Below, piece after piece: positions 1 through 35,903 of a stretch of DNA of 39,971 nucleotides (its first letter is position 1; every line of letters begins with the position of its first letter). Below the pieces are notes generated by a model, which made no database searches, had not been told where the DNA came from, and saw nothing but the letters and a program-made list of their open reading frames with translations. Location of the stretch: assembly GCA_021818465.1 (NCBI GenBank), contig JAKAEA010000001.1, positions 1-39,971 of the forward strand, in the 5' to 3' direction. A program made the translations under genes and the position numbers. The stretch is from a bacterium (GTDB lineage Bacteria > Patescibacteriota > Minisyncoccia > Phycocordibacterales > JAKAEA01).

Positions 1-375
<375 letters not shown>

Positions 376-677
376 AAAAATTATCCTCGCGAGATTTTGA
401 ATAAAAATCTGGCGAGTCGAACGGAACAAAATAAAAGACGCTAGTAAAAACTATTGTTTTTAAGATTTTGTATTTCCAACTTTATTTTTAGTGTAGGTTT
501 TGATTGCTCGAATAAAACTGACTTGTTTTATTTGGAATTATAATTTGTAAGAAATAATTAGGTACTTGCCGGAATATAACCAGTGTTACTGGCCATATCC
601 GTCTCAAGTATTCCAAGTTTCAAAGAACCAGCTCCTTTTAGAGAGCGTTAGACAGTATATCCTAACAAAAAATACTG

Positions 678-6493: not shown

Positions 6494-6606
6494 GTTCCGG
6501 CGGTGAGCTACTCTCCCATCCATAGACGGTACCATCGCCTCAGCGGAGCTTAACTTCTGAGTTCGGAATGAGATCAGGTGTGACCCCCGCGACGAACCAC
6601 CAGAAC
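6494..6606 (-). rRNA. rrf: 5S rRNA
   Basis: Reverse complement reads GTTCTGGTGGTTCGTCGCGGGGGTCACACCTGATCTCATTCCGAACTCAGAAGTTAAGCTCCGC...GGGAGAGTAGCTCACCGCCGGAAC. The ends pair as a terminal helix and the CCGAACTCAGAAGTTAAG core is present. Confidence 0.93.

Positions 6607-6666: not shown

Positions 6667-6678
<12 letters not shown>
6637..6678. repeat. 3' arm of the long-range inverted repeat bracketing 23S (putative RNase III processing stem)
   Basis: CCAGGTAACAGAGCATATATTG (6637-6658) and ACATTTCCTGAC (6667-6678) are reverse complements of 9996-10018 and 9977-9988. A short unpaired bubble separates the two paired segments. Confidence 0.75.
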
Positions 6679-9976
<3,298 letters not shown>

Positions 9977-9988
<12 letters not shown>

Positions 9989-10196: not shown

Positions 10197-10326
10197 TAAA
10201 AGCCTTTTTTAAGGGCCCTTATGAGCGGCAGTGGAATTTTTTGATCAACATATTCAGGTGAGAGCTATTATACTCTAAACTGTTTTTGCGTCAAGCGCCG
10301 AAGCTGGTATATACCCCAAGCCGAAA

Positions 10327-10959
10327 TTAGAGACCCAATTTGTCAAGAATTTTCTCGTGAGGATAATCGAGAATATCACGAATAAGTTTGTCATACATAT
10401 TCACACGATACTTAAAATCAGCTGTTTCAAAAACCGCATATTTAATTTCCCGACCAAGTTCTGACTCTATCTTTTTTACAATAGTATCGAGGGAAGTTTT
10501 TTTTATGCTATCACCGACGATAAGTAGGTCGATGCGCGCATCAAGGTTTTGTAGAAACACTCCCGACAAGACTACGAGTTTTAACTTTGCAACACGAGCC
10601 AGACGATCGACAATTTCTTTATCGCGCACAGGACTTGGGTAGAGTAATAACTCGCGTAATTGTCTCAAGTAACTAAACTCTGGATTGATGCTCCACGTGC
10701 TGGTACTCTTGAAACTCATTTTTTTAACATCGCCAGTCTTTTTTTCTACCTGCACTTTATTCCCTCGCATACTGCGACGGTGTCGCACAAGACCAACGCT
10801 TTCAAATAACGTTATCGTGCGTTTTGCTTCAGACTCTGAAACCTGGGAACGACGAGCAATGTCAGCCAATGAGAATGATCCTTGCGGGTTAAACAAAAAG
10901 AGCCGCATAATCTTTACCTTGGCCGCCGAACCAAATAGTTTTTCTAGTATCTCAATCAT
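10327..10959 (-). CDS. winged-helix domain protein, putative transcriptional regulator
   Basis: 210 aa. The N-terminal wHTH-like segment is LADIARRSQVSESEAKRTITLFESVGLV. The C-terminal segment RIDLLIVGD...YAVFETADF resembles a degenerate minimal nucleotidyltransferase fold. Function unknown. Confidence 0.5.
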   Translation of the reverse strand: MIEILEKLFGSAAKVKIMRLFLFNPQGSFSLADIARRSQVSESEAKRTITLFESVGLVRHRRSMRGNKVQVEKKTGDVKKMSFKSTSTWSINPEFSYLRQLRELLLYPSPVRDKEIVDRLARVAKLKLVVLSGVFLQNLDARIDLLIVGDSIKKTSLDTIVKKIESELGREIKYAVFETADFKYRVNMYDKLIRDILDYPHEKILDKLGL

Positions 10960-10974
10960 GAGGTGTAGTATAAC

Positions 10975-11006
10975 GCAAAATATGCCCGCTTGAAGGCGGG
11001 CATATT
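10975..11006 (-). terminator. intrinsic terminator after rplL
   Basis: Perfect 9-bp stem TATGCCCGC (10981-10989) / GCGGGCATA (10996-11004) with a 6-nt loop. On the minus strand it is followed by UUUUG. Confidence 0.7.
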
Positions 11007-11015
11007 GTATCGTTT

Positions 11016-11432
11016 TTATTTAAGTTCAACTTTTCCGCCCGCTTCTTCAACCTTTTTCTTGAAAGCGTCCGCATCTTCTTTCTTCATACCTTCTTTGAGA
11101 ACCGACGGTGCGGCGTCAACAAGATCTTTAGCTTCCTTGAGACCGAGGCCGAGTACCTCCTTCACCACTTTGATGACGGCAATTTTACCAGCGCCAGCAT
11201 CTTTTAAGTGCACGTTGTATGTGCTCTTTTCTTCAGCGGCTGGAGCGGCGCCGGCGGCCGGAGCGGCTGCAACAGCCGTGGCGGAAACACCGAAACGCTT
11301 TTCAAAAACTTTCACAAGCTCGTTGAGCTCCAACACTGACATTTTTTCAATACTTTCAATGATTGTTTTAAACTGAGCCGGAACTTCCACTTTTTCAGCG
11401 GCTGGAGCGGCTGCTGTTGTTTCTTCTGCCAT
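11016..11432 (-). CDS. rplL: 50S ribosomal protein L7/L12
   Basis: 138 aa with [18 protein letters not shown], an Ala/Pro hinge [14 protein letters not shown], and C-terminal [56 protein letters not shown]. Confidence 0.95.
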
Positions 11433-11483
11433 AATAATTTCAATTAATAAATACTAGTAATAAGACTACCGAACTGAGACCTT

Positions 11484-11978
11484 TTAGACGGTCTTGGTTT
11501 TAGCAATCTCGCCAAGGGCGAGCGCGGTGCGCTGAATTGGACTGTTGATAATATTAGCCAACATACCCAAAAGCGTTTGACGCGACGGAATACTGGCGAT
11601 GGCCAGAGCCTGATCGCGGCCGATATATGCGTTGTCAAAAATAGCTCCGAGAATAGAAATTTTTCCTTCGTGCTTTTTTTCAAATGCGTATACTTCGCGA
11701 GCAGGAGCCAAAGCGTCATTGGTGCTGTAGGCAATAGCTACTTCACCAGTGAGTTCCGGTACTTCGCCGGATATATTCTGATCGGTCAAAGCTTTGCGCA
11801 TCAGGGTTTTTTTAGCAACCGTGTAGCCAACGCCGTGCGCACGAAGATCGTGGCGCAATTGTGTTGTTTCCGCGACAGGTAAGCCGTGGAAATTTACAAA
11901 AACCATCGATGTAGCATTCGCAGCAATTTGCGAAACCTTATCTAAGATTTCCTTTTTTTTGTGTTTTGATAGGGCCAT
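11484..11978 (-). CDS. rplJ: 50S ribosomal protein L10
   Basis: 164 aa. FVNFHGLPVAETTQLRHDLRAHGVGYTVAKKTLMRKAL fits the L10 family pattern. It lies immediately upstream of rplL. Confidence 0.9.
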   Translation of the reverse strand: MALSKHKKKEILDKVSQIAANATSMVFVNFHGLPVAETTQLRHDLRAHGVGYTVAKKTLMRKALTDQNISGEVPELTGEVAIAYSTNDALAPAREVYAFEKKHEGKISILGAIFDNAYIGRDQALAIASIPSRQTLLGMLANIINSPIQRTALALGEIAKTKTV

Positions 11979-12084
11979 AGATACGAATCTATGAATAATT
12001 CTGAATCGACCCGTGGCAAAGTATTTGAGAATAACCTCGAGAGGACTTATGTATTGCCTCTTGTCTTTGGCACACGTGGCACCA

Positions 12085-15000
12085 TCATACCCCGTCGCGA
12101 AAATATGTCAACTTTTGGTGCGGAAGAATCTTAAATCGATTTTCAATTGTTTGTATAGTATCTTTTATTTTTTCTAGCATATCTTCGCCGAACGGGTGTC
12201 GCTCAAAAGCAGCCATGAGTTTTTTTATCGCTGCCGGATAGGTACGTGGATCAAACTCTCCAGAGGAAAATGTTGCGTCTACTACCCCATCACCATCGTA
12301 GTCAAGATTGAGCGGCGTAGTGGTGGTGCCCAAATCTACTGAAGCAATGGAACCAGGCGCAACAGGAATGTCTGCAAATTCTGTGGTGGTGCCGTTGAGC
12401 GTGATATCGAGCGTAGCCGTGCCCGCCGCCGTCGCCTGAAGCACAATCTTCCCTGCCGTGCCGGCGGGCACGGCGGCATATTGACCTTCTCCAAATGGCA
12501 CATAGTAGCTATTAGGAATTTTGCTTTCAATAGGAATGATGCTCGTATCCCGAATACTCAGATTTACACTAGAATGTGTACTCGGTCCTGTGTGTCGCCC
12601 CTGATCATCGTACACATGTAACATAACCGGCGAATGAACACTGATTTTTTCCTCACTACTGGAAGCAGCTATACTCGCCAGATACGCACGAGGAATAGTC
12701 GTGGAAACAAATGGCGGAAGTGCCGAATTACGTGACGCTGTTGTGCCAACCGTACCTTGTACAATATCTATCAGTAATTCTTCAGCTGGTAGTGTTTCCA
12801 ATATATCAGCATGTCCACGGTTCTCGGCATGCGTACTGTTGTAACGTGCCAAATCAACATAATACGTAAACGCAGTCGGGATGTACGCAGCTGCACTTGC
12901 TGTCACCACCGTATTGTCGCCAAGCTTCGTCATCTGTGGTGCCATATCCATACGTTCTGAATTTCCCAGTAACACTCCGAGAAACGATGGCTTCCGAGCG
13001 TAGTAGCGAGTGGCTGCAAGCGTACTGACGCCTACACCGGCGATTTCTATAACATTGATACCTGAAGGCGCGCGCCAGGTATCAAGCGCTGCGTGTTCAT
13101 TTGACGATGCGGTTAATAATGTTTTGTTTGCAATAGCGAGCAGCTGTTGGTGCGGAGCACTATAGGCTGCTGTACGCAAGAATCGAGACAGTGTGGGAGC
13201 ATCAGATATGGCTGCACCATACATACTATATAAATTAGAGATATCATTGAGAGAGGGATCGAGCACAACGGCTGGCATTGGTGCCGTTTTAAAATAGGCC
13301 GCAGTTGGCAAAAGTGTATAAGCAGCTGGCATATTCTCAGCAAGTTTCTGAGCAGTGCTCGCATTCAAAATAAAACCCATACCAACTTCTTGGCCATAAC
13401 CAGAAAGAAGCGCTGGAATAGCCAAGGGTGTACCATGTTGCGGCACCGCCACCAACACAACCTTGTCTAGTAGATTGCTTTTACCCTCCGCCTGCAACTC
13501 ATTCAATAAAAGCTCGGCAAGTATGCCTCCATTACTGTGCGCAACGATGGTTACTTTTTTAGTTTTTGAAGTAGCGGCCAACGCGGTTACCATAGATTGC
13601 AAACGAGATATAGCATTGGCACGTGCAGTACCCTCTTCTACAAGCTTTTTTGGATCGAGACGCCAATCATAGGGATACGCCTGCCACGATGCAATGACAC
13701 CGCCCGATACTAATGTATCGAGCACTCCAGAAAATTTTTGGTATATATCGACGTTAAATACGGGAAGTAATTCATTGGTTGTTTTGATAATGTCTTTGGT
13801 ATAGATGGGACGCGTACTAGCGCCAGAACTATCGAGTGCGAGATTAGCGAGAGGTGTCATAAATCCTGGTTCCCAAAGTTTGGTTTCTTTTGCATTCGCA
13901 CTTTTGCGCAAATGACCCAGAAGCGTGCTAGAGGTCGCGTACAACCTACTCGCCTCAATACCAGGAATAAAAAGAACACTGGAACAACAAGGTACAGGAT
14001 GCGGATCCACTTCTGCACTATCGTGAAGCCATGGAGAAAATGTAACATTATCGGATACCGCGTCTCCTGTACCCGTGGCGTTTAAGGTAGCGTGATACGG
14101 CCCATCCGCACTTCCCCACCAATTTTCTACGGCAGTAAACGGTGCAGTCGTTCGACTTAAAATACCAAACTGACCATTATGAACTATGTCACTATTTTGT
14201 ACAGAACCATTAACAGTTGACCACATTTCAATACCAGCATTGCTGTTTTTTGTTATCTGCAAAGCTTCTCCCGCAATAGTGGCACCATCATAGAGTTGTA
14301 TACCGTCGTTAGAAAAATTTTGAATGGTCGTGGTTGCTAGACGTAGGATTACTGGGCCAAAAGCTGTAATACCATTTTGTCCCCCATCAAAAACTGTGTT
14401 GGAAATTGTAGCCTGTGAATGCCCGGGAAGCGCTGTGTCCCACGCCGGATCATAGAGCTCTAACGCGGTGGCAATCGTGCCCGTAGCTTCTTCGAGTTTG
14501 GAATGAGTAAGAGAAATATTGCTGCCCGAGTACACTGCGACCGTGCCGGCAACTCCATCAGCATCAGCAAACACACACCGATCACAAGATGCTGTCGTGG
14601 AGGTATAGACAATCAATGCCGAGCCATTGTGCACTCCGCGCACTAAAAATTTTGAAGCCGAAAGTGTACTGGCGCCATACACCCGAACTGCGTCAGTACG
14701 ACTATCATCAACCGTCGTTGAAGCAATCATTGCGCTGCTGCTGGCATACACCCACAGTGCCCCCGTATACATATGCGAAAACGATACCGCGGTAAGCGTA
14801 AGCTTTCCGTGCGAAACCGAGACAGGATTATTCATAAAACTAATACTGCTACTGGCGATAGCAAGCCGTGTATTGAGATTAAAAATGCCGCCGCCGCTAT
14901 AGCGAATGACCGCTCCCGAAATAGTGGAGTACCCAGCAGTAAGAAAATTAATACCCCACCTATCAGACGCTGTCGGCAACGTAGCGCCGCCATCACCATT

Positions 15001-15333
15001 ACTATCGCCACCAACAGCATCATCAGCCAATGATGTAAAGTATACCGGCTCATTGGGGCTACCGGCGGCGTTCAATGCGCCGGCAATATTTAAGTTTGCA
15101 TCTGCAGCAAACTTAACCACGGTGCCTGGTTCAATATAGAGTGTTGCTCCTGGGTCGACGGTTACCACACCAGACACTTCATAGGTACCATCGAAGACCG
15201 ACCACACGGTGTCGGTGGCTATATCGCCACCGACACGCACCACGCCCGCTGCTTGTGCTGGTACACAATCGGTCATAAAAACGCCTCCACCTAAAAGCGC
15301 CGCCCACAAAATACCGCTGTAAAAAAATTTCAT
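12085..15333 (-). CDS. secreted fusion protein: parallel beta-helix region + LCAT/PGAP1-like alpha/beta-hydrolase (lipase/acyltransferase) + C-terminal domains
   Basis: 1082 aa with a signal peptide (MKFFYSGILWAALLGGGVFMTDCVPAQA). Residues ~30-445 are repetitive G/S/T/V-rich beta-helix-like sequence ending in NWWGSADGP. The hydrolase part has VLFIPGIEASRLY, YPYDWRLDP, the nucleophile elbow VTIVAHSNGG (Ser600 codon 13534-13536), LGDNTVV and GHADILE. A Ca-binding-like DYDGDGVVD lies at 12277-12303. Confidence 0.7.
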   Translation of the reverse strand: MKFFYSGILWAALLGGGVFMTDCVPAQAAGVVRVGGDIATDTVWSVFDGTYEVSGVVTVDPGATLYIEPGTVVKFAADANLNIAGALNAAGSPNEPVYFTSLADDAVGGDSNGDGGATLPTASDRWGINFLTAGYSTISGAVIRYSGGGIFNLNTRLAIASSSISFMNNPVSVSHGKLTLTAVSFSHMYTGALWVYASSSAMIASTTVDDSRTDAVRVYGASTLSASKFLVRGVHNGSALIVYTSTTASCDRCVFADADGVAGTVAVYSGSNISLTHSKLEEATGTIATALELYDPAWDTALPGHSQATISNTVFDGGQNGITAFGPVILRLATTTIQNFSNDGIQLYDGATIAGEALQITKNSNAGIEMWSTVNGSVQNSDIVHNGQFGILSRTTAPFTAVENWWGSADGPYHATLNATGTGDAVSDNVTFSPWLHDSAEVDPHPVPCCSSVLFIPGIEASRLYATSSTLLGHLRKSANAKETKLWEPGFMTPLANLALDSSGASTRPIYTKDIIKTTNELLPVFNVDIYQKFSGVLDTLVSGGVIASWQAYPYDWRLDPKKLVEEGTARANAISRLQSMVTALAATSKTKKVTIVAHSNGGILAELLLNELQAEGKSNLLDKVVLVAVPQHGTPLAIPALLSGYGQEVGMGFILNASTAQKLAENMPAAYTLLPTAAYFKTAPMPAVVLDPSLNDISNLYSMYGAAISDAPTLSRFLRTAAYSAPHQQLLAIANKTLLTASSNEHAALDTWRAPSGINVIEIAGVGVSTLAATRYYARKPSFLGVLLGNSERMDMAPQMTKLGDNTVVTASAAAYIPTAFTYYVDLARYNSTHAENRGHADILETLPAEELLIDIVQGTVGTTASRNSALPPFVSTTIPRAYLASIAASSSEEKISVHSPVMLHVYDDQGRHTGPSTHSSVNLSIRDTSIIPIESKIPNSYYVPFGEGQYAAVPAGTAGKIVLQATAAGTATLDITLNGTTTEFADIPVAPGSIASVDLGTTTTPLNLDYDGDGVVDATFSSGEFDPRTYPAAIKKLMAAFERHPFGEDMLEKIKDTIQTIENRFKILPHQKLTYFRDGV

Positions 15334-15424
15334 ACCACCACTCTATGCCTTCACGCTTAAAATTCTCATCACATAAAAATAAAATTTCTTTAAAATTCAC
15401 CATCACACCACAAAAAATTAACCA

Positions 15425-15457
15425 ACACAAAAGCCCGACCTTGTGGATCGGGCTTTG
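15425..15457 (-). terminator. intrinsic terminator after the 660-aa surface protein gene
   Basis: Minus-strand RNA reads AAAGCCCGA-UCCACAAGG-UCGGGCUUU followed by UGUGUUGGU. The stem is 15430-15438 paired with 15448-15456. Confidence 0.55.
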
Positions 15458-15516
15458 TGTAGTCAACCTGTTTATTTAGCCAAAGCTAGATAAACCAGGG
15501 TTCACAAGCGACTAGA

Positions 15517-17499
15517 TTATTGCGAGACACCAACGCCACCGCTCTTGAAGTTATCAAGACCCCAAGTTTGTGTGGTGCTGACAGCATTACCATTCGGGTT
15601 GTAGACCGTGGTAGAAGCCGATGTCATGTAGAACTGGTAGGTACCGCTACCACCGAGCTGAGCTGCGTTAGCAGTTGCAGCCAAGGTGACAGTGTAGGCC
15701 TGTCCTTGTGACAACGGAGCTGAGGTGCTAGACGGAGTCGGAGTGATGGACAAGATTGAAGTGCTCGCTGTCGGAATGACAGAAGCGCCAGTCAATGATG
15801 TACCGACTTTCACAATGAAGTCAGAAGCAACTGGTTGCACCATCTGACCACCCTTCGGAGTGACCGTGAAGGTCAACTGACCGTTAATGGTAGTGGTTTG
15901 ACCACTCTGGTTATTGCCACCAGAGGAAGCTGAACCAGAAACGAAGGCCAATTGCGGTGAAGCTGTGTAGAAGTACTGAGTGTTACCTATGAGGTTAGGA
16001 TTGGTGCTATAAACCTGACCAGTCGTGCTCTGATAAGTAACACTGTTCAACTCAAGCTGCACTGTCGTGTTGCCACTTGTATAGTTCGGAACAGAAACTT
16101 CAACAACATACGGCTGGGTTGTGCCCGAAGTAATCGTGCTACCCGTATCAGTTGTAAGGTTATTGAAGGTAATAGCCTGCGTACCATTCAAGCTTTGAGA
16201 AGCAACAACGGTACCATTCTGCACAAGGGAGATACTGGAAGCAGCGAGACCACTACCAGCAGCGTCGTTATGGAGAGGTGTAATGGTAATACTACTCAAT
16301 TGAGCATTAGCATTAGAGGCCTGTGCATTGAAGACGAATACTGGAATATTTTGAGCGCCAACATTCGGATCAATATAGTAGGTGCTGGAGAGTGGGTTGG
16401 AAGCATCAATACCGAAGGTAACAGTTGTATTACCCGGCTTGGTGAAGGTTTGCTGACGAGTAAAGGCAGAACCGGAAACGTTATAGTAATCAGCGATACC
16501 ACCACTCATGGTCTGAAGACCGGTTGTTCCATAACCAGTGATTGTCAACTGGTGAGCGATATCAATGCTACCGCTGGTGGTGAATTCAACAAGTAAGGTC
16601 TTTGTTTGACCGTTCGGAACGGTGAAGTTGAAACCAGACAAGCGGATGTAGTAGTCAGTTGAGCTTGCACCCTGAACGAAGCTGTTGAGGCCTACGTTGT
16701 AAGAAGCAAGAACTTGGTTGGTGCTACCATCAACAAGTTTAATGTTACTGATGAAGTTACCCGGATTTTCCTGGTAGCTTGGGCTAGCATTAACCTGATC
16801 TTGAACATCAAGGTCAAGGCGCTGGATGGTTACATCACCAATTTGAGCTTGGGCCTGGAGACCCCACACCGGAACATCAATATTCTGTTGAATATTGGTT
16901 TGGGTGGAAGGATTACCAGAGAGCGTCAAATTAAGTGTACCTTCCTGGCTTGTTGGTGTACTGGTTGTATTCGGAGTGCAGGTGAAACCAACTGGGCAGG
17001 TAGCCGGAGTGGTAGACGTGGTTGATGTGGTCGTGGTTGTGGTGCACGGAGCGCCAGTCATTGAATTAAACAAAGCGCCGGCTGGGCAACCAGGGGTTGC
17101 GGCAGCGCTGGTGCACGGAGCGCCAGTCATTGAATTAAACAAAGCGCCGGCTGGGCAACCAGGGGTTGAAGTCGTGCTTACTGAAGCCGATGAAGCAATA
17201 GCAGCGCGAGATTCAGGACCAAAGAAACCATAGGACGGAAGACCGATACTAGCTTGCCAAGCGGCAACAGCCTTCTTGGTGATAGGACCGAAGTAACCGG
17301 TCGGAGTCACTGTGAAGAAGCCTTCTTGAGCAAGGAACTGCTGGAGAGCGCTGACATCAGCACCAGTTGAACCAACAGTAAGGTTTCGTGTGAAGTTATA
17401 GGTGGAAGTCGTAGCAGCGGAAGCTGTGATAGCAGCAACGCCAACGAGCGACAAGATTGTCGCGGCACCTAAAGCTCCAACGAGAATTCGTTTAGACAT
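15517..17499 (-). CDS. secreted peptidoglycan-binding, low-complexity surface protein
   Basis: 660 aa with a signal peptide (ILSLVGVAAITASA). A PG_binding_1-like segment GSTGADVSALQQFLAQEGFF...GYFGPITKKAVAAWQASIGL is encoded at ~17215-17388. It has two copies of TPGCPAGALFNSMTGAPCT and a Thr-rich linker. About 470 aa of T/S/N/Q/G-rich beta-type sequence follow. Confidence 0.7.
   Translation of the reverse strand: MSKRILVGALGAATILSLVGVAAITASAATTSTYNFTRNLTVGSTGADVSALQQFLAQEGFFTVTPTGYFGPITKKAVAAWQASIGLPSYGFFGPESRAAIASSASVSTTSTPGCPAGALFNSMTGAPCTSAAATPGCPAGALFNSMTGAPCTTTTTTSTTSTTPATCPVGFTCTPNTTSTPTSQEGTLNLTLSGNPSTQTNIQQNIDVPVWGLQAQAQIGDVTIQRLDLDVQDQVNASPSYQENPGNFISNIKLVDGSTNQVLASYNVGLNSFVQGASSTDYYIRLSGFNFTVPNGQTKTLLVEFTTSGSIDIAHQLTITGYGTTGLQTMSGGIADYYNVSGSAFTRQQTFTKPGNTTVTFGIDASNPLSSTYYIDPNVGAQNIPVFVFNAQASNANAQLSSITITPLHNDAAGSGLAASSISLVQNGTVVASQSLNGTQAITFNNLTTDTGSTITSGTTQPYVVEVSVPNYTSGNTTVQLELNSVTYQSTTGQVYSTNPNLIGNTQYFYTASPQLAFVSGSASSGGNNQSGQTTTINGQLTFTVTPKGGQMVQPVASDFIVKVGTSLTGASVIPTASTSILSITPTPSSTSAPLSQGQAYTVTLAATANAAQLGGSGTYQFYMTSASTTVYNPNGNAVSTTQTWGLDNFKSGGVGVSQ
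17041..17168. repeat. in-frame tandem duplication, 69-nt period, 59 nt identical
   Basis: 17041-17099 is identical to 17110-17168 (GGTGCACGGAGCGCCAGTCATTGAATTAAACAAAGCGCCGGCTGGGCAACCAGGGGTTG). It encodes the two CPAGALFNSMTGAPC modules. Confidence 0.95.
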
Positions 17500-29676: not shown

Positions 29677-31596
29677 TTACTGTTGCACAAAACCATTTTG
29701 ACCACCGTAGGTTGGATCACTGGAAATGTCCGTGGTGAGCGAACCAGCTGAAGCCGACACGGGCACATTCACAAACGCATCGGTACCGTTAAACGAAATA
29801 TCATTAACAATATCCGGCGCGGTGCCAACTTGATTAACCGTTGGATCAACTTCTACTTGAAATGCCACCGAAGCAACGGGCGCAGCGCCACCAGCCGGTA
29901 ACGTCCCTGGAGTCCAGGTAATTGTGTTTGAATTAGTATCAAACGTTACCGACGCATTGCTAGGACTAATATTATTGAGCCATTTAACGTAGGCTGGTAA
30001 GGTCGCCGTAACCGTGCCACCAGACACTGTATTGGAACTATTGGTTAATGTCCAGACAATCGTATAGGTGGTTGGTGTATCTGCGCGCGGCGGCACAAGA
30101 CCAGTATTGGTAAACGGCCCGGTGGAATATACAGCGTGTGCAAGCAAACCAACAGCTGTTGTCAATCGTGCCGACAGCGTAGATGTTGAAGAAATAGGAG
30201 CCGCACCAGAAACGGCGCCGTATTCTTGACCGCTGACATTAGCAGATAGTGTTATTGTTCCATTGTCTAATCCCGCGAGCACACTGGCTGGTAATGTTGC
30301 GAACGAAAATTGCAACGATATCTGCTGACCAGGACTTATGACACCGAGATCAGGATCTGATAGACGATCCCACGTGATTGCCTGTGACGATTGACGGTAG
30401 ATACCATTTTCAGCAGGATTCACACTTGTTGGATCGAGCGCATTGCCGTTGAGCGTTACCGTCGTCACCGCATTTAATAAATCAACGGGTAAATTATTAG
30501 TAATGGTAAGTGTTGCATTAGAAGAACCTGGCTGAATCACAACATTGTTTCCATTAGCTGTACCAACAGACATCGCCAATGCCACAGGCGAACGCTGGAT
30601 AGTGAGCGTTTGATTTTGAGCGAGATAAATAACCCCTAATTTTTGCGGATCCACCTGGCTCTGGGTACCAACGAGAAATCGAACTGTTTCCTGATCATTC
30701 TCCTGGCCCTGTAAGTAGCCACGAATAGTAATGGTTTCGGTACTACTAGCAGACAACGCTGGAAAGAGCCATTCTGAATTGTTGCTATAGCTTGGCGCTG
30801 GCGTAGAACTAGCAAACTGAAAACCAAACGGATACTGTGCCGTAACTAACACATTTGATGGCGGATTATTGGAGTTTGCAGACAGTGTCAGTGAAAAATT
30901 AACGGGGGCGCCGGCAGGCGTTTGACTGGGCGCGTTTATATTCATCGCCAGCGGCGCTGAACTAATTTCTACAGTATATATTTCTTTCTTTTGATATAAC
31001 GCATTATCGTTGGCGATAGAATATTGAATTGTTGCGGTAATTTGTTCCGTAGCATGCTCAGCCCCGTAGATAACCGCTTCCACATTGTGTGTCATCGATG
31101 TACCAGAGGCAATTGTTCCCAACACATCAGACTCGTGAAGCAATGTTGCTGACGTATTAGTCGCTTCGACGGTACCATTCGGAAAGGTCAGATATAGTCT
31201 GGCATTTTCCATAGAAGCTATATTGTTGTTTTTTATTACTACAGAGAAATCGAGTGGCGTACCAGCCGCTATGGTTACTGGCCCCACAAATGAAACAGCG
31301 ACATTATTATTAGAAACTGTATTAAAACCACGATAAATGATAACCCCAGCAATGCTAGCACACACCAAAAAAAATATGAGCGATCCCAAAAAAAGTGCTT
31401 TTAGAGAAAAGCCGTGACCATGACCCTGAGCTTCATCAGCAAAAAGTTCCTCGGTGTCTTTCCAGCGTCGAGGACTCGTGTTCGCAGTGGTAGGTAATGT
31501 GGGCTTAGGAAAATTTGGTGTATCAGAAAAATCTCGATCATAAATTCTATTACCGAGTTTTTCCAGGCCGTCAAAATCTGGTTTTTTCGGATTCAT
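29677..31596 (-). CDS. hypothetical type-II membrane-anchored surface protein
   Basis: 639 aa with a ~65-aa cytoplasmic N-terminus and one TM (ALFLGSLIFFLVCASIAGVIIY). About 550 aa of T/S/N/A-rich, beta-type repetitive extracytoplasmic sequence follow. Confidence 0.55.
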   Translation of the reverse strand: MNPKKPDFDGLEKLGNRIYDRDFSDTPNFPKPTLPTTANTSPRRWKDTEELFADEAQGHGHGFSLKALFLGSLIFFLVCASIAGVIIYRGFNTVSNNNVAVSFVGPVTIAAGTPLDFSVVIKNNNIASMENARLYLTFPNGTVEATNTSATLLHESDVLGTIASGTSMTHNVEAVIYGAEHATEQITATIQYSIANDNALYQKKEIYTVEISSAPLAMNINAPSQTPAGAPVNFSLTLSANSNNPPSNVLVTAQYPFGFQFASSTPAPSYSNNSEWLFPALSASSTETITIRGYLQGQENDQETVRFLVGTQSQVDPQKLGVIYLAQNQTLTIQRSPVALAMSVGTANGNNVVIQPGSSNATLTITNNLPVDLLNAVTTVTLNGNALDPTSVNPAENGIYRQSSQAITWDRLSDPDLGVISPGQQISLQFSFATLPASVLAGLDNGTITLSANVSGQEYGAVSGAAPISSTSTLSARLTTAVGLLAHAVYSTGPFTNTGLVPPRADTPTTYTIVWTLTNSSNTVSGGTVTATLPAYVKWLNNISPSNASVTFDTNSNTITWTPGTLPAGGAAPVASVAFQVEVDPTVNQVGTAPDIVNDISFNGTDAFVNVPVSASAGSLTTDISSDPTYGGQNGFVQQ

Positions 31597-31746: not shown

Positions 31747-32337
31747 TCACAATTGCGACTGATGCAACGAAAAATTAATCGTGGTCACAAGTGATCTACG
31801 TTTTTTTTGAGCAGCAACAATTAAATCCTGACTCCAAGAATCAGTTAAAAATAATTTCAAATCATCGCCAGCAGAACTATAGCCAAGATTGTACAATATG
31901 CGCAACACCACTATATGTTCAAACGCTGCTGCTGCAACATCAGAAAATTCTATGCCACGTGCAAAATGGAGCGCCGCCAGTATTTCAACATAGAGCTGCT
32001 CACTCTTCTCTTCCCCGGGCACCAGGCGAATTAGTAAGCGAAAAATGCGCGCGATTGCTTCCACGAACGGCCGATTGGTGCGTTGCTGCCAAAAAATATT
32101 TGTATCAGCCGAGGCATTCGTAATGCGCCAATGTTCTTTTCCCCGCACCAGTGACACAGAGAGCACCGAAAATTCCTGCAATGCATAACGCAATTTTGAA
32201 ACTTCACGACGAATCCCCTGCGCCGTAGCCCACACTATTCCTAATTGCGGCGTAAAGAGCGTATAGCTTCGATCAGCCTCACGGCTCGGCGCACTTGCGA
32301 GCACCATCGCTGGTGTAGTGTAAATGTGGTGCGACAT
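31747..32337 (-). CDS. recO: DNA repair protein RecO (short form)
   Basis: 196 aa. The N-terminal OB pattern is PAMVLASAPSREADRSYTLFTPQLGIVWATAQGIRREVSKLRYALQEFSVLSVSLVRGK. The later FEHIVVLRILYNLGYS resembles the RecO helical domain. No Cys4 zinc finger is present. Confidence 0.6.
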   Translation of the reverse strand: MSHHIYTTPAMVLASAPSREADRSYTLFTPQLGIVWATAQGIRREVSKLRYALQEFSVLSVSLVRGKEHWRITNASADTNIFWQQRTNRPFVEAIARIFRLLIRLVPGEEKSEQLYVEILAALHFARGIEFSDVAAAAFEHIVVLRILYNLGYSSAGDDLKLFLTDSWSQDLIVAAQKKRRSLVTTINFSLHQSQL

Positions 32338-35300
32338 TAAAATTTCAAATCAAGAGTAAATGTTATGTTTTCTATAGTGATAGTATTGTTGGCACTCAAT
32401 AAAACCGTATCAAAAACGATACGCTTGGTTCTAGTCACCTGTCGAATATCAGCAGCGAAGACTTCAATAATTTTTCTCCCTTCCGACGATGTGGCGACCG
32501 TAAGCATAATATCTTGACTTGGTTGCAAGCCAGCATTTTTACGTAACTCTTGCACAGATCGGATAAATTCTCGGGCTATGCCTTCATGTTTCAGTTCCGG
32601 CGTGATTGTAGTATCTAATTTGACCAGTTCGGTTTGCGAAGCATTTTTTGAGATTTTCTTTATATTTACTTCATCTCTAACGAGCGCGGCGAGGTGCTCG
32701 TCATCAAGCACCTGTGCAAAAGCGCCATTAACCGTCAACGCAGCCAGCGGCTGACGAATTTTAATACCCGCCGCCGCTCGCGCCTCCAGCGCGAGCGATA
32801 CTAGCTCGCGAGTTTTGTACATATTGTTAATTAAAGAGACCGTTTCATTTTTTTCCAAGATTGGCACCCAGGGCCAGCGTTCTACATGGACGCTTTCTTG
32901 ATCATTTTTTGTTTTCACTTTTTGATACAAATCTTCGGCGAGAAATGGCATAAATGGTGCGAGACTTTTTGCGAGTTCGCGCAAAACAAAACGAGTAGTA
33001 GCAATAGCGTCACGAGCAGTGTCGGCATTTTTGAAGCGATCGCGAGAGCGACGAATATACCAGGTTGAAAGGTCGTCGATAAACTGTGCGAAGGGACGCG
33101 CAGCAGCATCGAGCCTGTAGCTATCCAATTCTCTTGTTATCTCCCCTTGCATCTCTGACAATGTCGCCAGAATCCAGCGATCAAGAATGTTGGGCGAATC
33201 AGTATTGGGCTCAACAGTTCCATCTGCATAGAGCTCATAAAATGAGTAAACATTATCTAAGCGATTGATAATTTTTTTAACGACTTCATCCAAACCTTTT
33301 TCAGAAAATGCCAAGTCTTCGGCTTCAACGACCGGCGAGGAAAGGAGATAGTAGCGCAATGCATCAGCGCCATATTTATCCAAAACAAAACGGATGTCAG
33401 GATAATTTTTAAGTCGCTTGGACATTTTTTGCCCGTCTTCGGCCAAAACAATACCATTCACTACTACGTTTTCATACGGCGCACAATCAAATAGTGCCGT
33501 ACTTAAAATAAGCAGTGTATAAAACCAGCCGCGCGTTTGGTCCTGACCTTCAGCGATGAAGTTAGCGGGGAAACGTGGCAGCTTTTTTTTATTTTCTTGC
33601 TCAAAAGGAAAATGAATTGACGCAAACGGCATAGAACCAGATTCGTACCAGGTATCAAAGACATCAGGAACGCGTTTCATGTTCCCCGAGCAACCCTTTG
33701 CTGTACAAGGAAATTCCACCGCATCGATATAGGGCCGATGCATATCGAAATTAAACTGTGGATCGTGGGGCAAAGCGGCAAACGGCAATGTGCGAATCTC
33801 GGCATTGTCCATAAAACCAACGTTGTATACGCCAAGTGGTTCAGCTAAATGTAGCGCGGCCGAAAGCGGCGCAGCATGACTGATAATTAAAATATTTTTA
33901 CCTTTGTGAGCGGCATCAATTTCATAGAAAAATTCACCGACACGTTTTTGCTCGTGGACTTTTGTCTCATCATTTTTAGACACATCACCAACGCGATAAG
34001 CTGCATTACGTTCCTGACGACTCTTGCCACCAAAAGCAAACGCGCCGAGCTCGTGGAGACGTTCATCGGTTATGATTTTTCCCTGAAAACCGATTTCCTG
34101 GGCCATAATTTTTGCTGTTTGTTGCGTCCGCTCAAAGGGCGAAGCAAAAATCAAGTCAATTTTTTTGCCAACCAAATCCTCGGAAAGTTTTTTAGCTGCT
34201 TCCCTCACCTGCCGCTCGCCTTCAGATGTTAACGGATCATGCGCTTGCTCATTGGGACTGATAACATTGGCCACGTTACTATGCGCTTGACCGTGGCGCA
34301 TCAAAAAATAATTATTACGCTGCAACTTTGTATACAGTGTTTTTACCGAGTCAACAAATTCTAGTTCGCCACATTCATCACATTTCCACACCGGCAACGG
34401 CGCGCCCCAAAAGCGCGAACGCGATACCGCCCAGTCACGGGCGTTCTCCAGCCACGTACCGAAGCGTCCCTGACCGATTTCTTCCGGCACCCAACGCACC
34501 TTTTTATTTTCCTCAACGAGTTTTTCTTTGAGTGTAGTCACCTGCACAAACCACGAACTCGTCGCGTAGTTTAAAAGCGGCGTGTCACAGCGCCAACAGT
34601 GCGGATAGCTGTGGGTGATTTTTTCTTTAGCAAAAAGCGTGCCGTGATGCGCCAAGTATTTGATAATTTCAATATCTGCTTTCTGGTGCGCATTCGGCTC
34701 TTCCGCCGTCGGTCGCGGCTTGACCTGCTGCCCCGCAAAATCCGTCACCTCTTTTTTAAAGCGCCCATCCATGCCGACGTGCTGGATGAACGGTAGCTCA
34801 GCCGTTTGCGAGAGATTATAGTCGTCCTCGCCAAATGCCGGCGCGATGTGCACAATACCCGTGCCATCGGTCGTGGTCACAAAATCCGCACCAACCACAC
34901 TGTACAGATGTTCGCGATGCTTCACGTCAGTCGCCTGCTCATAGTACGGAAACACCGGTTTGTATTTTTTGCCGAGCAATTCCTTTCCTTTAAAACTATG
35001 GCTCTCAACAAAAACATCACCAGCATCTTTAGGTATTGGAAGATGTGTTTTTGCAAAGTCGGCAATTACATATGTTCCAAGAAAATTTTCTATTTTTACT
35101 TTTATATAGTCAATCTTCGGATTCACCGCGAGCGCCGCGTTACCCGGCAATGTCCAGGGCGTCGTCGTCCAGGCCAGCAAAAACGTGCCAGGCTCGTCAA
35201 CCAGTTCAAACTTCACATACGCCGAAAGATCGCTGATATCTCGATAATTTTGTCCGACTTCAAAATTGGAAAGTGTCGTCTCACAACGCGGGCACAGGTG

Positions 35301-35903
35301 CATCGGCTTGAATCCTTGATAGACCAGGTGCTTATCGTGCAATTGTTTGAATGACCACCAGATACTCTCGGTGTAGCGCCAATCCATCGTTAGGTAGGCG
35401 TGGTCCATGTCCACGAAGCGGCCGGTGCGCGGCACGATATCCTTCCACAGCGTGTCGTAGCGCAAAACGCTCGCGCGGGCCGCGGCGTTAAATTTTTCCA
35501 CGCCGTAGAGCTCAATGTCTTTGCGCGTGGAAAGTCCGAGCTCCTTCTCAATCATATTTTCAATTGGCAAACCGTGACAATCCCAACCCCAGCGTCGCGG
35601 TACACGGTAACCGCTCATCGTTTTGTAGCGCGGTATGACGTCCTTGATGGTGCCTGCGAGAATGTGCCCGTAGTGCGGCTCGCCCGTGGCAAACGGCGGC
35701 CCGTCGTAGAAAATAAATTCTAACTCCGTACCATCTTTAATGAGAGGCTTCTTGTCGAGAGTTTTTTGAAAAATATCGTGATCGCGCCAAAACTGGAGCG
35801 TTGCCTCCTCGCGCTTGGCGATGACAGATTTTACATTTTCTTCTTTATTTCTTTTTTGTTCCGGCTTTGCCGTTATATCGGCTGCGGAGTCCTCTTTAAC
35901 CAT
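32337..35903 (-). CDS. ileS: isoleucyl-tRNA synthetase (type 2-like) with an internal histidine-phosphatase domain insertion
   Basis: 1188 aa with HIGH as PHYGH (res 76-80), a CP1 editing region (LAWTTTPWTLPGN), KMSKS as KMSKR and DVFDTWYESGSMPF. Residues ~528-716 are an extra domain; see the separate feature. Confidence 0.93.
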   Translation of the reverse strand: MVKEDSAADITAKPEQKRNKEENVKSVIAKREEATLQFWRDHDIFQKTLDKKPLIKDGTELEFIFYDGPPFATGEPHYGHILAGTIKDVIPRYKTMSGYRVPRRWGWDCHGLPIENMIEKELGLSTRKDIELYGVEKFNAAARASVLRYDTLWKDIVPRTGRFVDMDHAYLTMDWRYTESIWWSFKQLHDKHLVYQGFKPMHLCPRCETTLSNFEVGQNYRDISDLSAYVKFELVDEPGTFLLAWTTTPWTLPGNAALAVNPKIDYIKVKIENFLGTYVIADFAKTHLPIPKDAGDVFVESHSFKGKELLGKKYKPVFPYYEQATDVKHREHLYSVVGADFVTTTDGTGIVHIAPAFGEDDYNLSQTAELPFIQHVGMDGRFKKEVTDFAGQQVKPRPTAEEPNAHQKADIEIIKYLAHHGTLFAKEKITHSYPHCWRCDTPLLNYATSSWFVQVTTLKEKLVEENKKVRWVPEEIGQGRFGTWLENARDWAVSRSRFWGAPLPVWKCDECGELEFVDSVKTLYTKLQRNNYFLMRHGQAHSNVANVISPNEQAHDPLTSEGERQVREAAKKLSEDLVGKKIDLIFASPFERTQQTAKIMAQEIGFQGKIITDERLHELGAFAFGGKSRQERNAAYRVGDVSKNDETKVHEQKRVGEFFYEIDAAHKGKNILIISHAAPLSAALHLAEPLGVYNVGFMDNAEIRTLPFAALPHDPQFNFDMHRPYIDAVEFPCTAKGCSGNMKRVPDVFDTWYESGSMPFASIHFPFEQENKKKLPRFPANFIAEGQDQTRGWFYTLLILSTALFDCAPYENVVVNGIVLAEDGQKMSKRLKNYPDIRFVLDKYGADALRYYLLSSPVVEAEDLAFSEKGLDEVVKKIINRLDNVYSFYELYADGTVEPNTDSPNILDRWILATLSEMQGEITRELDSYRLDAAARPFAQFIDDLSTWYIRRSRDRFKNADTARDAIATTRFVLRELAKSLAPFMPFLAEDLYQKVKTKNDQESVHVERWPWVPILEKNETVSLINNMYKTRELVSLALEARAAAGIKIRQPLAALTVNGAFAQVLDDEHLAALVRDEVNIKKISKNASQTELVKLDTTITPELKHEGIAREFIRSVQELRKNAGLQPSQDIMLTVATSSEGRKIIEVFAADIRQVTRTKRIVFDTVLLSANNTITIENITFTLDLKF
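33756..34322 (-). other. histidine phosphatase (PGAM/His_Phos_1-like) domain embedded in ileS
   Basis: All five family blocks are present in order. They are FLMRHGQAHSN (His537 codon 34293-34295), LTSEGERQVREAA, IFASPFERTQQTAKIM, DERLHELGAFAFGG and ILIISHAAPL (His676 codon 33876-33878). The domain is in frame with IleRS sequence on both sides. Confidence 0.8.

Follow-up and report, generated by a model that had tools for sequence, protein, structure and literature searches.

Gene architecture and genomic context of the lipase locus

We analyzed a window of 39,971 nucleotides, i.e. the whole presented stretch of contig JAKAEA010000001.1, with 29 open reading frames (ORFs). The ORF of 1082 residues that the initial annotation had placed at 12085–15333 was recovered exactly and lies on the minus strand; its features are compiled in Table 1. 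Full-length orthologues share 63% and 52% identity with the protein. The locus is also present, with 0 differences, on an independent contig of 6.8 kb sequenced at ~19x depth. The upstream neighbor encodes a peptidoglycan-binding wall protein, and with the terminator-like hairpin behind it, a transcription unit of its own putatively begins for the lipase gene. The downstream region previously ascribed to the gene itself turned out to be a 106-nt spacer with a near-consensus promoter directed into rplJ, the first gene of the rplJ–rplL pair.

Table 1 Features of the lipase gene, its product and its flanks.
Feature	Position	Strand	Residues	Basis and remarks
Modular LCAT-type lipase gene, product predicted to be exported	12085..15333	(-)	1082 aa	Complete ORF, from ORF list
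Putative Sec signal peptide (MKFF…VPAQA/AG)	15250..15333	(-)	1-28	Sequence features and homologous leaders
N-terminal head, right-handed parallel beta-helix	13999..15249	(-)	29-445	Pfam Beta_helix, model
Beta-helix C-cap NWWGSADGP	14098-14124	(-)	404-412	Motif
Alpha/beta-hydrolase, LCAT/LPLA2/Tle4 type	12739..13998	(-)	446-865	PF02450, profile and Foldseek matches
CCSS motif		(-)	449-452	Sequence
First strand and oxyanion loop VLFIPGIEASRLY	13939..13977	(-)	453-465	P457, G458 invariant; aligns with Tle4 VIFIPGIMGTNL
YPYDWR motif	13660..13677	(-)	553-558	Aligned with PYDWR of LPLA2 and LCAT
Nucleophile elbow AHSNGG	13525..13542	(-)	598-603	Ser600 codon 13534-13536; aligned to catalytic Ser of LPLA2, LCAT, Tle4
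Acid strand LGDNTVV	12904..12924	(-)	804-810	Asp806 codon 12916-12918; aligned to GDGDGTV (LPLA2), GDDTV (LCAT)
Base GHADIL	12799..12816	(-)	840-845	His841 codon 12811-12813; 151/151
Conserved beta-sandwich	12259..12654	(-)	894-1025	Ten strands, pLDDT ~85-92; in 150/150 relatives
Ca-binding-like loop DYDGDGVVD (DxDGDGxxD)	12277-12303	(-)	1011-1019	Inside beta-sandwich
Helical hairpin tail	12088..12258	(-)	1026-1082	Helices 1031-1044, 1050-1069; pLDDT 55-68
Promoter-like site TTGACA-16-TATGAT	12084..12111	(-)		Overlaps lipase stop codon; 11/12 consensus matches; directed into rplJ-rplL
Terminator-like hairpin	15430..15456	(-)		After upstream wall-protein gene; 11-bp stem, 6 GC pairs, T-rich tail

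The block running from FtsK to the wall protein, the lipase gene and rplJL keeps the same housekeeping order in ~25 genomes, and the gene is vertically conserved in this neighborhood. Among 80 related loci, 29 carry a gene for a small protein with four transmembrane helices (4-TM) immediately downstream, of which the window holds no copy, and some genomes contain tandem paralogues of the lipase gene. Genes for lipid uptake, lipid transport or reacylation were found nearby neither in the window nor in the 80 related loci, and none of the 29 ORFs of the window encodes a type VI secretion system (T6SS) or other contact-dependent delivery component (VgrG, Hcp, Tli). Nothing from the locus was present in three small metatranscriptomes of the same study. 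The automatic JGI label for the protein is generic carboxylesterase.

The guess that the DNA derives from a CPR-type organism proved correct: by synteny, its nearest relatives are metagenome-assembled genomes of Parcubacteria/Tayloriibacteriota, the rRNA genes are unlinked and the 23S gene is ~390 nt longer than the model. The source would be an ultrasmall and presumably lipid-dependent Parcubacteria-type (CPR/Patescibacteria) bacterium. Patescibacteria account for much of the diversity of bacteria, and as a rule they do not synthesize fatty acids or phospholipids.

A putative leader precedes a beta-helix head

The amino terminus displays the features of a Sec leader, comprising K2, a hydrophobic core of 17 residues and an A-x-A site (AQA/AG), and residues 7–15 form a low-confidence helix in the AlphaFold model. 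The public gene call P0001 (1063 aa) begins at Met20, by which the leader would be lost. This internal ATG at 15276 is preceded 7 nt upstream by a perfect GGAGG, a better Shine-Dalgarno sequence than that of the longer start; we nevertheless favor the latter based on the homologues P0002 and P0003 and on the hydrophobic leaders found in 126 of 146 relatives. The sequence features support export via this putative leader. Neither a membrane anchor nor a lipobox was found in the lipase sequence of the window.

The beta-helix region with its NWWGSADGP cap, as initially annotated, is corroborated by the Pfam Beta_helix family (PF13229; 42.7 bits versus a threshold of 25.9, with a weak NosD match) and by a confident model with ~40 strands of 3–6 residues between residues 31 and 402, mostly at pLDDT >90. 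The amino-terminal cap module (residues ~34–150) is widely shared, and both cap modules also occur in 52 unrelated secreted proteins. In Foldseek, GH87, AlgG and PL6 matched weakly (TM 0.3–0.47, E 1e-4 to 1e-3). Given how weak this likeness to carbohydrate-active beta-helix enzymes is, the label 'adhesin-like' given earlier is a guess; as the neighbors are polysaccharide-active enzymes, a carbohydrate-ester substrate is also conceivable.

The hydrolase domain is of the LCAT/LPLA2 type

Three approaches upheld the LCAT-type assignment of the central domain: Pfam, a profile comparison with the PDB sequences, and a fold search. The Pfam LCAT family (PF02450) scored 58.4 bits, where the gathering cut-off is 21, the match spanning residues 531–684 and only profile positions 66–212. 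LCAT was the top above-threshold match in all 14 tested relatives carrying the hydrolase domain, where matches reach profile positions 52–386 of 392 and in several cases cover nearly the whole profile. The family profile retrieved LPLA2 (6.9e-10), LCAT (~2e-9) and Tle4 (2e-7 and 2.4e-5) from the PDB sequences. The PYDWR and GDxTV motifs align with the LPLA2 and LCAT chains at every residue, and the alignments also include the nucleophile and a PxxG(T/G) loop. Likewise, Foldseek with the AlphaFold model (residues 441–1082: pLDDT 85.5, pTM 0.88; full length: pLDDT 84.6) ranked LPLA2 first (E 4e-12, target-normalized TM 0.65–0.71, ~450 aligned columns) and LCAT second (TM 0.61–0.69), followed by Tle4, well ahead of other lipases. 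Insertions at residues 468–530 and 640–760 of the model occupy the places expected for the membrane-binding and cap subdomains of LCAT/LPLA2. Taken from sequence and predicted structure, the enzyme class of an LCAT/LPLA2-type alpha/beta-hydrolase is well supported.

The hydrolase span first proposed, 12754–13989, corresponds to residues 449–860, and all motifs reported within the ORF are located where they had been placed. Among 151 family members, P457 and G458 of the oxyanion strand are invariant, as are Y555, W557 and R558 of the YDWR motif (D556 in 150/151), Ser600, and G805 and D806 (V809 in 150/151). In the model, Ser600 is located between the strand 594–599 and the helix 602–615, and His841 in a loop following the strand 822–827 and the helix 828–835. 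The nucleophile, acid and base picked in the initial annotation hence coincide with invariant residues, and Ser600–Asp806–His841, following one another in alpha/beta-hydrolase order, qualify by sequence as the candidate catalytic triad. The only cysteines of the domain are the pair C449–C450 at its amino-terminal edge. That the protein is an adhesin devoid of catalysis, or the ORF spurious or wrongly assembled, is effectively ruled out by the 151/151 conservation, and the confident models, the identical independent assembly and the >1,300 full-length relatives likewise speak against it.

The enzyme could also be a general extracellular lipase or esterase with no link to a host, acting on non-membrane esters such as triacylglycerol, wax esters, polyesters or the O-acetyl groups of polysaccharide or peptidoglycan to which the beta-helix would bind. 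The resemblance of the head to the GH87, AlgG and PL6 folds would suit such a role, as would the weaker matches of the hydrolase to family I.5 lipases, Bacillus lipases and BlEst2, the carboxylesterase label, and the proposal that Parcubacteria are biomass recyclers (bioRxiv 10.1101/2022.04.20.488981). However, the LCAT, LPLA2 and Tle4 matches stand orders of magnitude above any match to a triacylglycerol lipase. All characterized members of the LCAT/LPLA2 fold act on glycerophospholipids via an acyl-serine intermediate, and the residue following the PG motif, I459, is hydrophobic, a trait of lipid-acting lipases (PMC6027918). Furthermore, a polysaccharide-linked substrate is not the common denominator of the family, since the beta-helix is missing from most of its members. 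We consider this role quite unlikely.

A conserved carboxy-terminal module and interchangeable heads

The beta-rich domain and the DYDGDGVVD loop noted behind the hydrolase are confirmed in model and sequence. D1011, D1015, G1016 and D1019 of the loop are nearly invariant among the relatives, and no Pfam or PDB relative of the beta-sandwich was found. The tail shows only 16–38% identity, even to the closest orthologues.

Clustered at 50% identity, the family comprises at least 1,398 clusters (E<=1e-30). It is spread over 214 or more species genomes, almost all of them from Patescibacteria. Hydrolase, beta-sandwich and tail are common to all 150 best relatives, and at least 12 types of amino-terminal head are interchangeable, the beta-helix being one of them. 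The fusion of beta-helix and lipase put forward at first is therefore present here, but does not define the architecture: it occurs in only ~40% of the 150 best relatives, and the remainder have either no head or one of at least 11 further, unrelated types. An unchanging catalytic core combined with variable heads would fit a targeting-module design. As had been supposed, the architecture appears uncharacterized, in that we found no publication in the literature describing it or the family.

Comparison with known enzymes

The best profile and fold matches, lysosomal phospholipase A2 (LPLA2/PLA2G15; PDB 4X90–4X97) and lecithin:cholesterol acyltransferase (LCAT; PDB 4XWG, 5TXF, 6MVD), both belong to PF02450 and present the same order of motifs as the lipase, i.e. 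the PG oxyanion strand, PYDWR, xHSxG, the PxxG loop, the GDxTV acid and the histidine. Domain size (~420 aa) and the large insertions at the sites of the membrane-binding and cap domains are similar, and both enzymes are secreted, as is predicted for the lipase. Their identity to it is only 14–16%, and the spacing from serine to aspartate is ~206 aa in the lipase versus ~162–164 aa in LPLA2 and LCAT (PMC6027918 for LPLA2; the LCAT value is general background). Unlike these two, the lipase is bacterial and carries the beta-helix head as well as the beta-sandwich, Ca-loop and helical tail.

Tle4 (PDB 4R1D, Tle4–Tli4 complex), an antibacterial T6SS phospholipase effector of Pseudomonas aeruginosa, is a bacterial member of the same clan. 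Tle4 attacks bacterial membranes. Its aligned blocks comprise VIFIPGIMGTNL versus VLFIPGIEASRL in the lipase, THSMGGL versus AHSNGGI, the PxxG loop and an LPSAEY block; the Foldseek match has an E-value of 6.5e-9, but a TM of only 0.43, lower than for LPLA2 and LCAT. This kinship raises the possibility of a membrane-breaching effector that would lyse or permeabilize a host or prey cell to release its cytoplasmic nutrients, lipid supply being incidental. In both sequence and fold, Tle4 is one of the best matches, aligned over the oxyanion strand and nucleophile block, and Pfam adds a weak Tle3 match. The downstream 4-TM protein of 29/80 related loci could be an immunity factor, tandem paralogues are common in effector arsenals, and a secreted LCAT of Toxoplasma helps membrane rupture (PMC5830472). 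The accessory domains differ from those of Tle4. Against an effector role, a putative Sec leader stands here in place of T6SS delivery, no contact-dependent delivery gene lies in the window, the putative immunity gene has no copy there, and the locus is a stable housekeeping block, not a variable effector island. We regard a dedicated effector as unlikely on balance. The evidence fits a membrane-breaching role, as for Tle4, just as well as it fits lipid harvesting, and the two are not mutually exclusive.

Exported PF02450 enzymes hydrolyzing another membrane are known from Toxoplasma gondii (LCAT), Plasmodium berghei (PL) and plants (LCAT3/LCAT4), where they are used by a dependent organism or in a lytic compartment and require the catalytic serine (PMC5830472; PMC13377104); in Toxoplasma and Plasmodium the secreted enzymes disrupt membranes (PMC5830472). 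They are related to the lipase by family only, being eukaryotic with other accessory regions and no demonstrated role in lipid acquisition. A precedent by proposed function is Vamp_34_196 of the predatory Absconditabacteria member Vampirococcus lugosii, proposed to be a secreted phospholipase with the double effect of harming the membrane of the host and providing phospholipids (PMC8080830). It differs from the lipase in belonging to another CPR lineage, and the proposal was made for a single gene and not for a radiation-wide family.

Proposed mode of action

CPR bacteria lack lipid synthesis and are enriched in lysolipids, which on the basis of lipidomics were proposed to stem from phospholipase A action (PMC7242380), and as of 2024 no mechanism of lipid uptake or breakdown had been identified in Patescibacteria (PMC11665869). 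The lysolipid-rich membranes have been read as an adaptation to curvature (PMC7242380), which would also suit an enzyme remodeling the cell's own envelope. In that case it would act on the outer leaflet, lipoproteins or lipoglycans of its producer, yielding lysolipids that ease curvature stress, or would transacylate a surface acceptor, as LCAT-type enzymes are transacylases (PMC6027918); the vertical conservation beside a peptidoglycan-binding wall protein and rplJL is in line with this. However, the many unrelated amino-terminal heads are hard to explain with a constant self-substrate, the protein encoded in the window lacks a membrane anchor or lipobox, and hydrolysis of its own lipids without acyl resupply would be costly for a cell unable to make fatty acids. 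We consider self-remodeling very unlikely.

We instead favor, with about even confidence, a lipolytic enzyme of modular build that a Parcubacteria-type bacterium exports via Sec and that would act outside the cell on foreign membrane lipid, its products being used by the cell. The leader would be removed after export, and the beta-helix head would bring the protein to a surface that is probably rich in glycans. The beta-sandwich, Ca-loop and helical tail probably serve to keep the enzyme at the cell surface or to orient it there. Ser600–Asp806–His841 would detach an acyl chain of a membrane glycerolipid, forming a serine acyl-enzyme, and pass it either to water, yielding lysolipid and free fatty acid as a phospholipase A, or to an acceptor alcohol by transacylation. 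The substrate, presumably phospholipid, would most likely be the membrane of a neighboring or host cell, or membrane debris. The resulting lysolipids and fatty acids could be taken up and used by a CPR cell auxotrophic for lipids, and the same reaction would also weaken the target membrane. Harvesting of host lipid would be a plausible role, in agreement with what has been published on lysolipids in CPR bacteria.

Implications for the biology of Patescibacteria

A more far-reaching and speculative idea, which we hold to be improbable, is that Parcubacteria-type CPR bacteria acquire lipids by means of this family, which would be the enzyme so far missing for that task. It would be a surface LCAT-style transacylase that removes acyl chains or sets free lysolipids from the membrane of an attached host cell and so supplies the symbiont membrane, for which de novo synthesis is lacking. 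The interchangeable heads would then set which host surface is recognized, and sandwich and tail would anchor the enzyme to the symbiont, possibly via the downstream 4-TM protein found in about one third of the genomes. If true, this would explain the lysolipid-rich membranes of CPR bacteria.

Taken together, the family offers a concrete and testable candidate for the breakdown of membrane lipids of other cells that is widespread, vertically conserved, predicted to be exported and intact in its catalytic residues, and that belongs to the enzyme clan that makes lysolipids. Its modular layout suggests testable ideas on host range, and expression and assay of the lipase do not require a culture of the bacterium. 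Even if it were only a generic lipase, this would still be the first description of a large bacterial LCAT/LPLA2 branch and of a new conserved carboxy-terminal module.

Reading frame and translation start

The open reading frame of the LCAT-like gene (12085..15333, minus strand) encodes 1082 residues, and a sequence check found every motif that the initial annotation had listed for this protein at its expected position. Positions 10300–17069 of the window recur with 0 differences in an independent public contig (6,840 nt, ~19x depth), so the reading frame is not an assembly artefact.

The public gene call of the protein (P0001) comprises 1063 residues, corresponding to a start at Met20. A perfect GGAGG precedes this ATG (15276) by 7 nt; ahead of the ATG of the longer form (15333) there is only GGTGGT. 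The longer amino terminus, MKFFYSGILWAALLGGGVFMTDCVPAQA followed by AG after an A-x-A site, is of the n-h-c leader type. The two closest orthologues (P0002 and P0003) carry equivalent leaders at their amino termini and lack an internal methionine at the Met20 position. A simple hydrophobic-window test on the complete amino termini of the family (n=146) detected a hydrophobic leader in 126, the Met20 form of the window protein scoring 0. Based on the orthologue leaders and this test, translation likely starts at 15333 and the protein is likely exported by Sec; the public start, which removes the signal peptide, is then likely a systematic mis-annotation.

Predicted structure

Using the family alignment, AlphaFold2 yielded a mean pLDDT of 85.5 and a pTM of 0.88 for residues 441–1082, and 84.6 and 0.63, respectively, for the full-length protein. 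In the full-length model S600 lies between the strand 594–599 and the helix 602–615, forming a classical nucleophile elbow.

Features of the window protein (residue numbers; segments from the full-length AlphaFold2 model) and of other genes in the window (nucleotide positions)
Feature	Position	Strand	Remarks
Leader	N-terminal		helix, low confidence
β-helix	aa 31 to 402		~40 short strands, mostly pLDDT >90
Cap-like motif NWWGSADGP	aa 404-412		
Linker	aa 425-448		
α/β-hydrolase	aa 449 to ~860		
CCSS	aa 449-452		
VLFIPGIEASRLY	aa 453-465		
YPYDWR	aa 553-558		
AHSNGG	aa 598-603		nucleophile elbow
LGDNTVV	aa 804-810		
GHADIL	aa 840-845		
β-sandwich	aa 894-1022		ten strands
DYDGDGVVD	aa 1011-1019		
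Helical hairpin	aa 1031-1069		lower confidence, after the β-sandwich
16S rRNA, 5' end	1-378	-	after five protein genes
5S rRNA	6495-6604	-	after 23S
23S rRNA	6671-9981	-	span 3,311 nt vs 2,925-nt model
Glucodextran_B-like protein, 120 aa	21279-21641	+	adjoins FtsK, conserved in syntenic block

Class of the hydrolase

Pfam LCAT (PF02450) matched residues 531–684 with 58.4 bits (gathering score 21) and Beta_helix (PF13229) scored 42.7 bits (gathering score 25.9), bearing out both assignments proposed initially. Weaker Pfam matches (DUF7379, DUF900, PGAP1, Tle3 and Lipase_2) all fell over the nucleophile region, and an NCBIfam search with the window protein gave no meaningful match. For the carboxy-terminal region, the Pfam scan returned nothing and a search of its last 201 residues against PDB sequences only noise.

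Among PDB sequences, the single window protein sequence found nothing, and LPLA2, LCAT and Tle4 were reached only by a family profile. A first profile of 38 members, run against all PDB sequences, had as its sole strong matches LPLA2 (Group XV phospholipase A2, 4x90; E 6.9e-10), LCAT (E ~2e-9) and 4r1d (E 2e-7). The profile alignment placed the family PYDWR opposite PYDWR, VtIvAHSnGG opposite VVLVAHSMGN (LPLA2) and VFLIGHSLG (LCAT), PqlGTP opposite APWGG, and sdGDgTVvvpSA opposite GDGDGTVNLKSA (LPLA2) and EDGDDTVATRS (LCAT). A cleaner profile devoid of the amino-terminal heads scored 4r1d and LPLA2 equally among PDB sequences (2.4e-5 each), with the first strand VlFlPGleaSrL opposite VIFIPGIMGTNL of 4r1d and the LPSAEY block also aligned.

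With the model of residues 441–1082, Foldseek returned, in this order, LPLA2 (E 4e-12 to 1e-11, target-normalised TM 0.65–0.71, ~450 columns), LCAT (E 5e-10 to 1e-7, TM 0.61–0.67) and 4r1d ('The crystal structure of Tle4-Tli4 complex'; E 6.5e-9, TM 0.43), with BlEst2 and family I.5 lipases far behind; the full-length model left this ranking unchanged. These fold matches uphold the LCAT-type assignment proposed initially.

Defining features of the LCAT/LPLA2 family are an α/β-hydrolase core with membrane-binding and cap domains, a Ser-Asp-His triad (Ser165/Asp327/His359 in LPLA2) and a serine acyl-enzyme that water or a lipophilic alcohol can resolve (PMC6027918). Directly after the PG motif, LPLA2 has Asp13, LCAT Cys31 and ordinary lipases a hydrophobic residue (PMC6027918); in the window protein this residue is Ile459. 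The lines of evidence examined (profile score, motifs, triad and overall fold) place the window protein in the PF02450 LCAT/LPLA2 superfamily. It differs from the characterised members in its CPR origin, in a longer Ser-Asp spacing, in a hydrolase lacking cysteines except for the C449-C450 pair at its amino-terminal edge, and, as a family, in a constant, unannotated carboxy-terminal sandwich with Ca-loop and tail module as well as in variable amino-terminal heads. Tle4 is related to it by sequence profile and fold; we rejected a T6SS effector identity because the window has no T6SS context and the protein carries a putative Sec leader.

Conservation and modular heads

Across alignments of 34–38 full-length relatives, P457, G458, Y555, D556, W557, R558, H599, S600, G602, G603, P631, G634, G805, D806, V809, S813 and H841 are invariant. 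An exhaustive HMMER scan with the hydrolase domain alone against 1.84 billion cluster representatives retrieved 2,724 proteins at E<=1e-3, 1,787 at 1e-10 and 1,398 at 1e-30, the best 150 matching end-to-end. In the family HMM alignment of these 150 and the query, S600, D806, H841, H599, Y555, W557 and R558 were retained in 151/151 sequences, which argues that the enzyme is under strong selection to remain active. A reading of the window protein as a pseudoenzyme or artefact was rejected, given that the triad is invariant and a separate assembly reproduces the locus.

A β-sandwich follows the hydrolase in all 150 representatives, with a nearly constant 226–294 residues after the hydrolase. The amino-terminal side is variable: both ends of the window β-helix head were found in 60/150, neither in 85/150, and 11/150 have almost no extension. 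Clustering separated one β-helix group (63 members) from 19 singletons and at least 11 further groups unrelated to it, all of them positioned after hydrophobic leaders. Pfam recognised a SpaA-type prealbumin fold in one of the other groups, a NosD-type β-helix in another and nothing else; LCAT was the top match in every member tested. Two portions of the window head, an N-cap module (aa ~34–150) and a C-cap with NWWG (aa ~375–445), recur in other phyla, where 52 large secreted proteins contain them, frequently as tandem copies; RHS-toxin and T9SS-sorted proteins are among these.

A hypervariable head was considered and rejected, as head (63–72% identity) and core (67%) diverge equally between the window protein and its close orthologue P0002. 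From this equal divergence, head diversity is read as module swapping over deeper evolutionary time, not hypermutation. Foldseek related the β-helix weakly to GH87 glucanase, AlgG and PL6 lyases (E 1e-4 to 1e-3, TM 0.3–0.47); a surface- or glycan-binding role of the head can be proposed with low confidence.

In one relative (P0047) a Glucodextran_B-like domain forms the amino-terminal accessory domain. IS200-like (Y1_Tnp) transposase genes precede the LCAT-like gene closely, either directly or with a single gene in between, at L002, L012, L029, L053 and L079, with L003 an exception to this placement; in five loci such a gene sits within the otherwise conserved block. This site may be a hot spot for head swapping.

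Organism and gene neighbourhood

The window, from a mine-drainage metagenome, encodes SecD/F, FtsW, a sugar transferase, rplJ/rplL, FtsK, RecA, EF-P, SSB, S6, TatD, several aminoacyl-tRNA synthetases, dUTPase, thymidylate kinase and SHMT, alongside 23S, 5S and a partial 16S rRNA. Linkage of the rRNA genes is lost and their order is non-canonical: after 23S and 5S come five genes for proteins (an unknown of 269 aa, FtsW/RodA, sugar transferase, SecD and SecF) and then the 16S 5' end; the 23S carries ~390 nt of insertion(s). The isoleucyl-tRNA synthetase (32337-35903, minus strand, 1188 aa) has a class I catalytic domain that is split in two by an inserted histidine-phosphatase domain (PF00300, aa 533–704), and 29677-31596 (minus strand) encodes another large predicted surface protein of 639 aa with a DUF11 repeat.

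Scanning one genome per species located relatives of the LCAT-like gene at at least 214 loci. Labels of the best 80 of these were almost all Patescibacteria, Parcubacteria, Paceibacterota, Moraniibacteriota, Taylor-, Kaiser-, Zambryski- or Uhrbacteria, or else 'uncultured Candidatus Saccharibacteria', this last a third-party label that may be generic. Nearest among the loci listed was L001 (JAJYGQ010000003.1; RecA 91%, FtsK 83%, LCAT-like protein 63% identical), followed by Parcubacteria/Tayloriibacteriota MAGs (RecA ~81%), classified in the Patescibacteria and Parcubacteria groups. These nearest syntenic relatives bear out the CPR-type cell assumed initially. The exported wall protein encoded immediately upstream (15517-17499, minus strand) has 660 aa and a PG_binding_1 domain. 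Its sequence includes long stretches rich in Thr/Ser and two copies of a PGCPAGALFNSMTGAPCT motif, and it is syntenic with the LCAT-like gene in ~17 loci.

Comparison of the best 80 of the at least 214 loci with the window showed its order of genes again in ~25: EF-P, RecA, the small Glucodextran_B-like protein, FtsK, a 259-aa HTH protein, the peptidoglycan-binding wall protein, the LCAT-like gene, an optional small membrane protein, L10, L7/L12, a 210-aa protein and an MscS-like channel. This shared order indicates that the LCAT-like gene is old and vertically inherited within a housekeeping block, not on a mobile island. Since the wall-protein gene upstream ends in a terminator-like hairpin (15456-15430) and a near-consensus promoter (12111-12084) overlaps the LCAT-like stop codon, directed into rplJ, the LCAT-like gene looks like its own transcription unit.

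At 29 of the 80 loci (including L002, L003, L005-L007, L011, L015-L019, L023 and L029), a gene for a protein of ~139 aa, predicted to cross the membrane about four times and bearing an amino-terminal CxxxxC, lies directly downstream, with gaps of -4 to +34 nt. The protein has no Pfam match, and neither tblastn nor HMM found a copy in the window; it could be an immunity factor, anchor or uptake partner. Some CPR genomes have two or three LCAT-like copies, sometimes in tandem (L005, L044, L061 and L078), and the CAIMLT01 and CAYHIZ01 genomes carry such genes on two contigs each.

Proposed role

The window protein combines an intact, conserved LCAT/LPLA2/Tle4-type serine hydrolase with a preceding leader and β-helix and a following conserved sandwich and tail, in a large, CPR-centred family with swappable heads. 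It is very probably secreted and active as a lipolytic enzyme of this clan; that phospholipids or lysophospholipids are its substrate is somewhat more likely than not.

Following the established chemistry of the clan, Ser600 would be acylated by a glycerolipid acyl chain, which would pass to water, yielding lysolipid and fatty acid, or to an acceptor. Context suggests a foreign membrane or membrane debris as target, to which the head may direct the enzyme, while the DxDGDGxxD loop may bind Ca2+ and the tail or sandwich may retain the enzyme at the cell surface. The products would feed a lipid-auxotrophic cell, and/or the reaction would breach the host membrane.

Patescibacteria are described as lacking lipid pathways (PMC11665869; PMC10633639; PMC13059738). 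Size fractions enriched in CPR show an unusual abundance of lysolipids, which may come from phospholipase A acting on the lipids of other cells, followed by uptake (PMC7242380). Secreted LCAT-family enzymes of Toxoplasma and Plasmodium disrupt membranes and require the catalytic serine (PMC5830472), and plant vacuoles use LCAT-family enzymes for membrane disruption (PMC13377104). For the predatory Vampirococcus, one secreted phospholipase has been proposed to serve both host-membrane damage and phospholipid supply (PMC8080830). The CPR literature examined makes no mention of an LCAT-type enzyme, and we found none joining LCAT or PF02450 with CPR.

Neither the window nor the 80 related loci contain a lipid-transport or reacylation gene beside the LCAT-like gene; conserved neighbours across the 80 are ribosomal proteins, FtsK, RecA, a DeoR-like HTH protein, an MscS-like channel, an IS200 transposase and an ABC ATPase, none lipid-specific. 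Transcripts of the locus were absent from the three metatranscriptomes of the source study, which are small and hence uninformative. Both absences speak against lipid harvesting, or at least not for it, and we consider lipid supply as the main role, over membrane attack, general scavenging or self-remodelling, somewhat less likely than not. For an acknowledged gap in CPR biology, the window protein is a specific candidate that can be expressed; its functional link to that gap is inferred.
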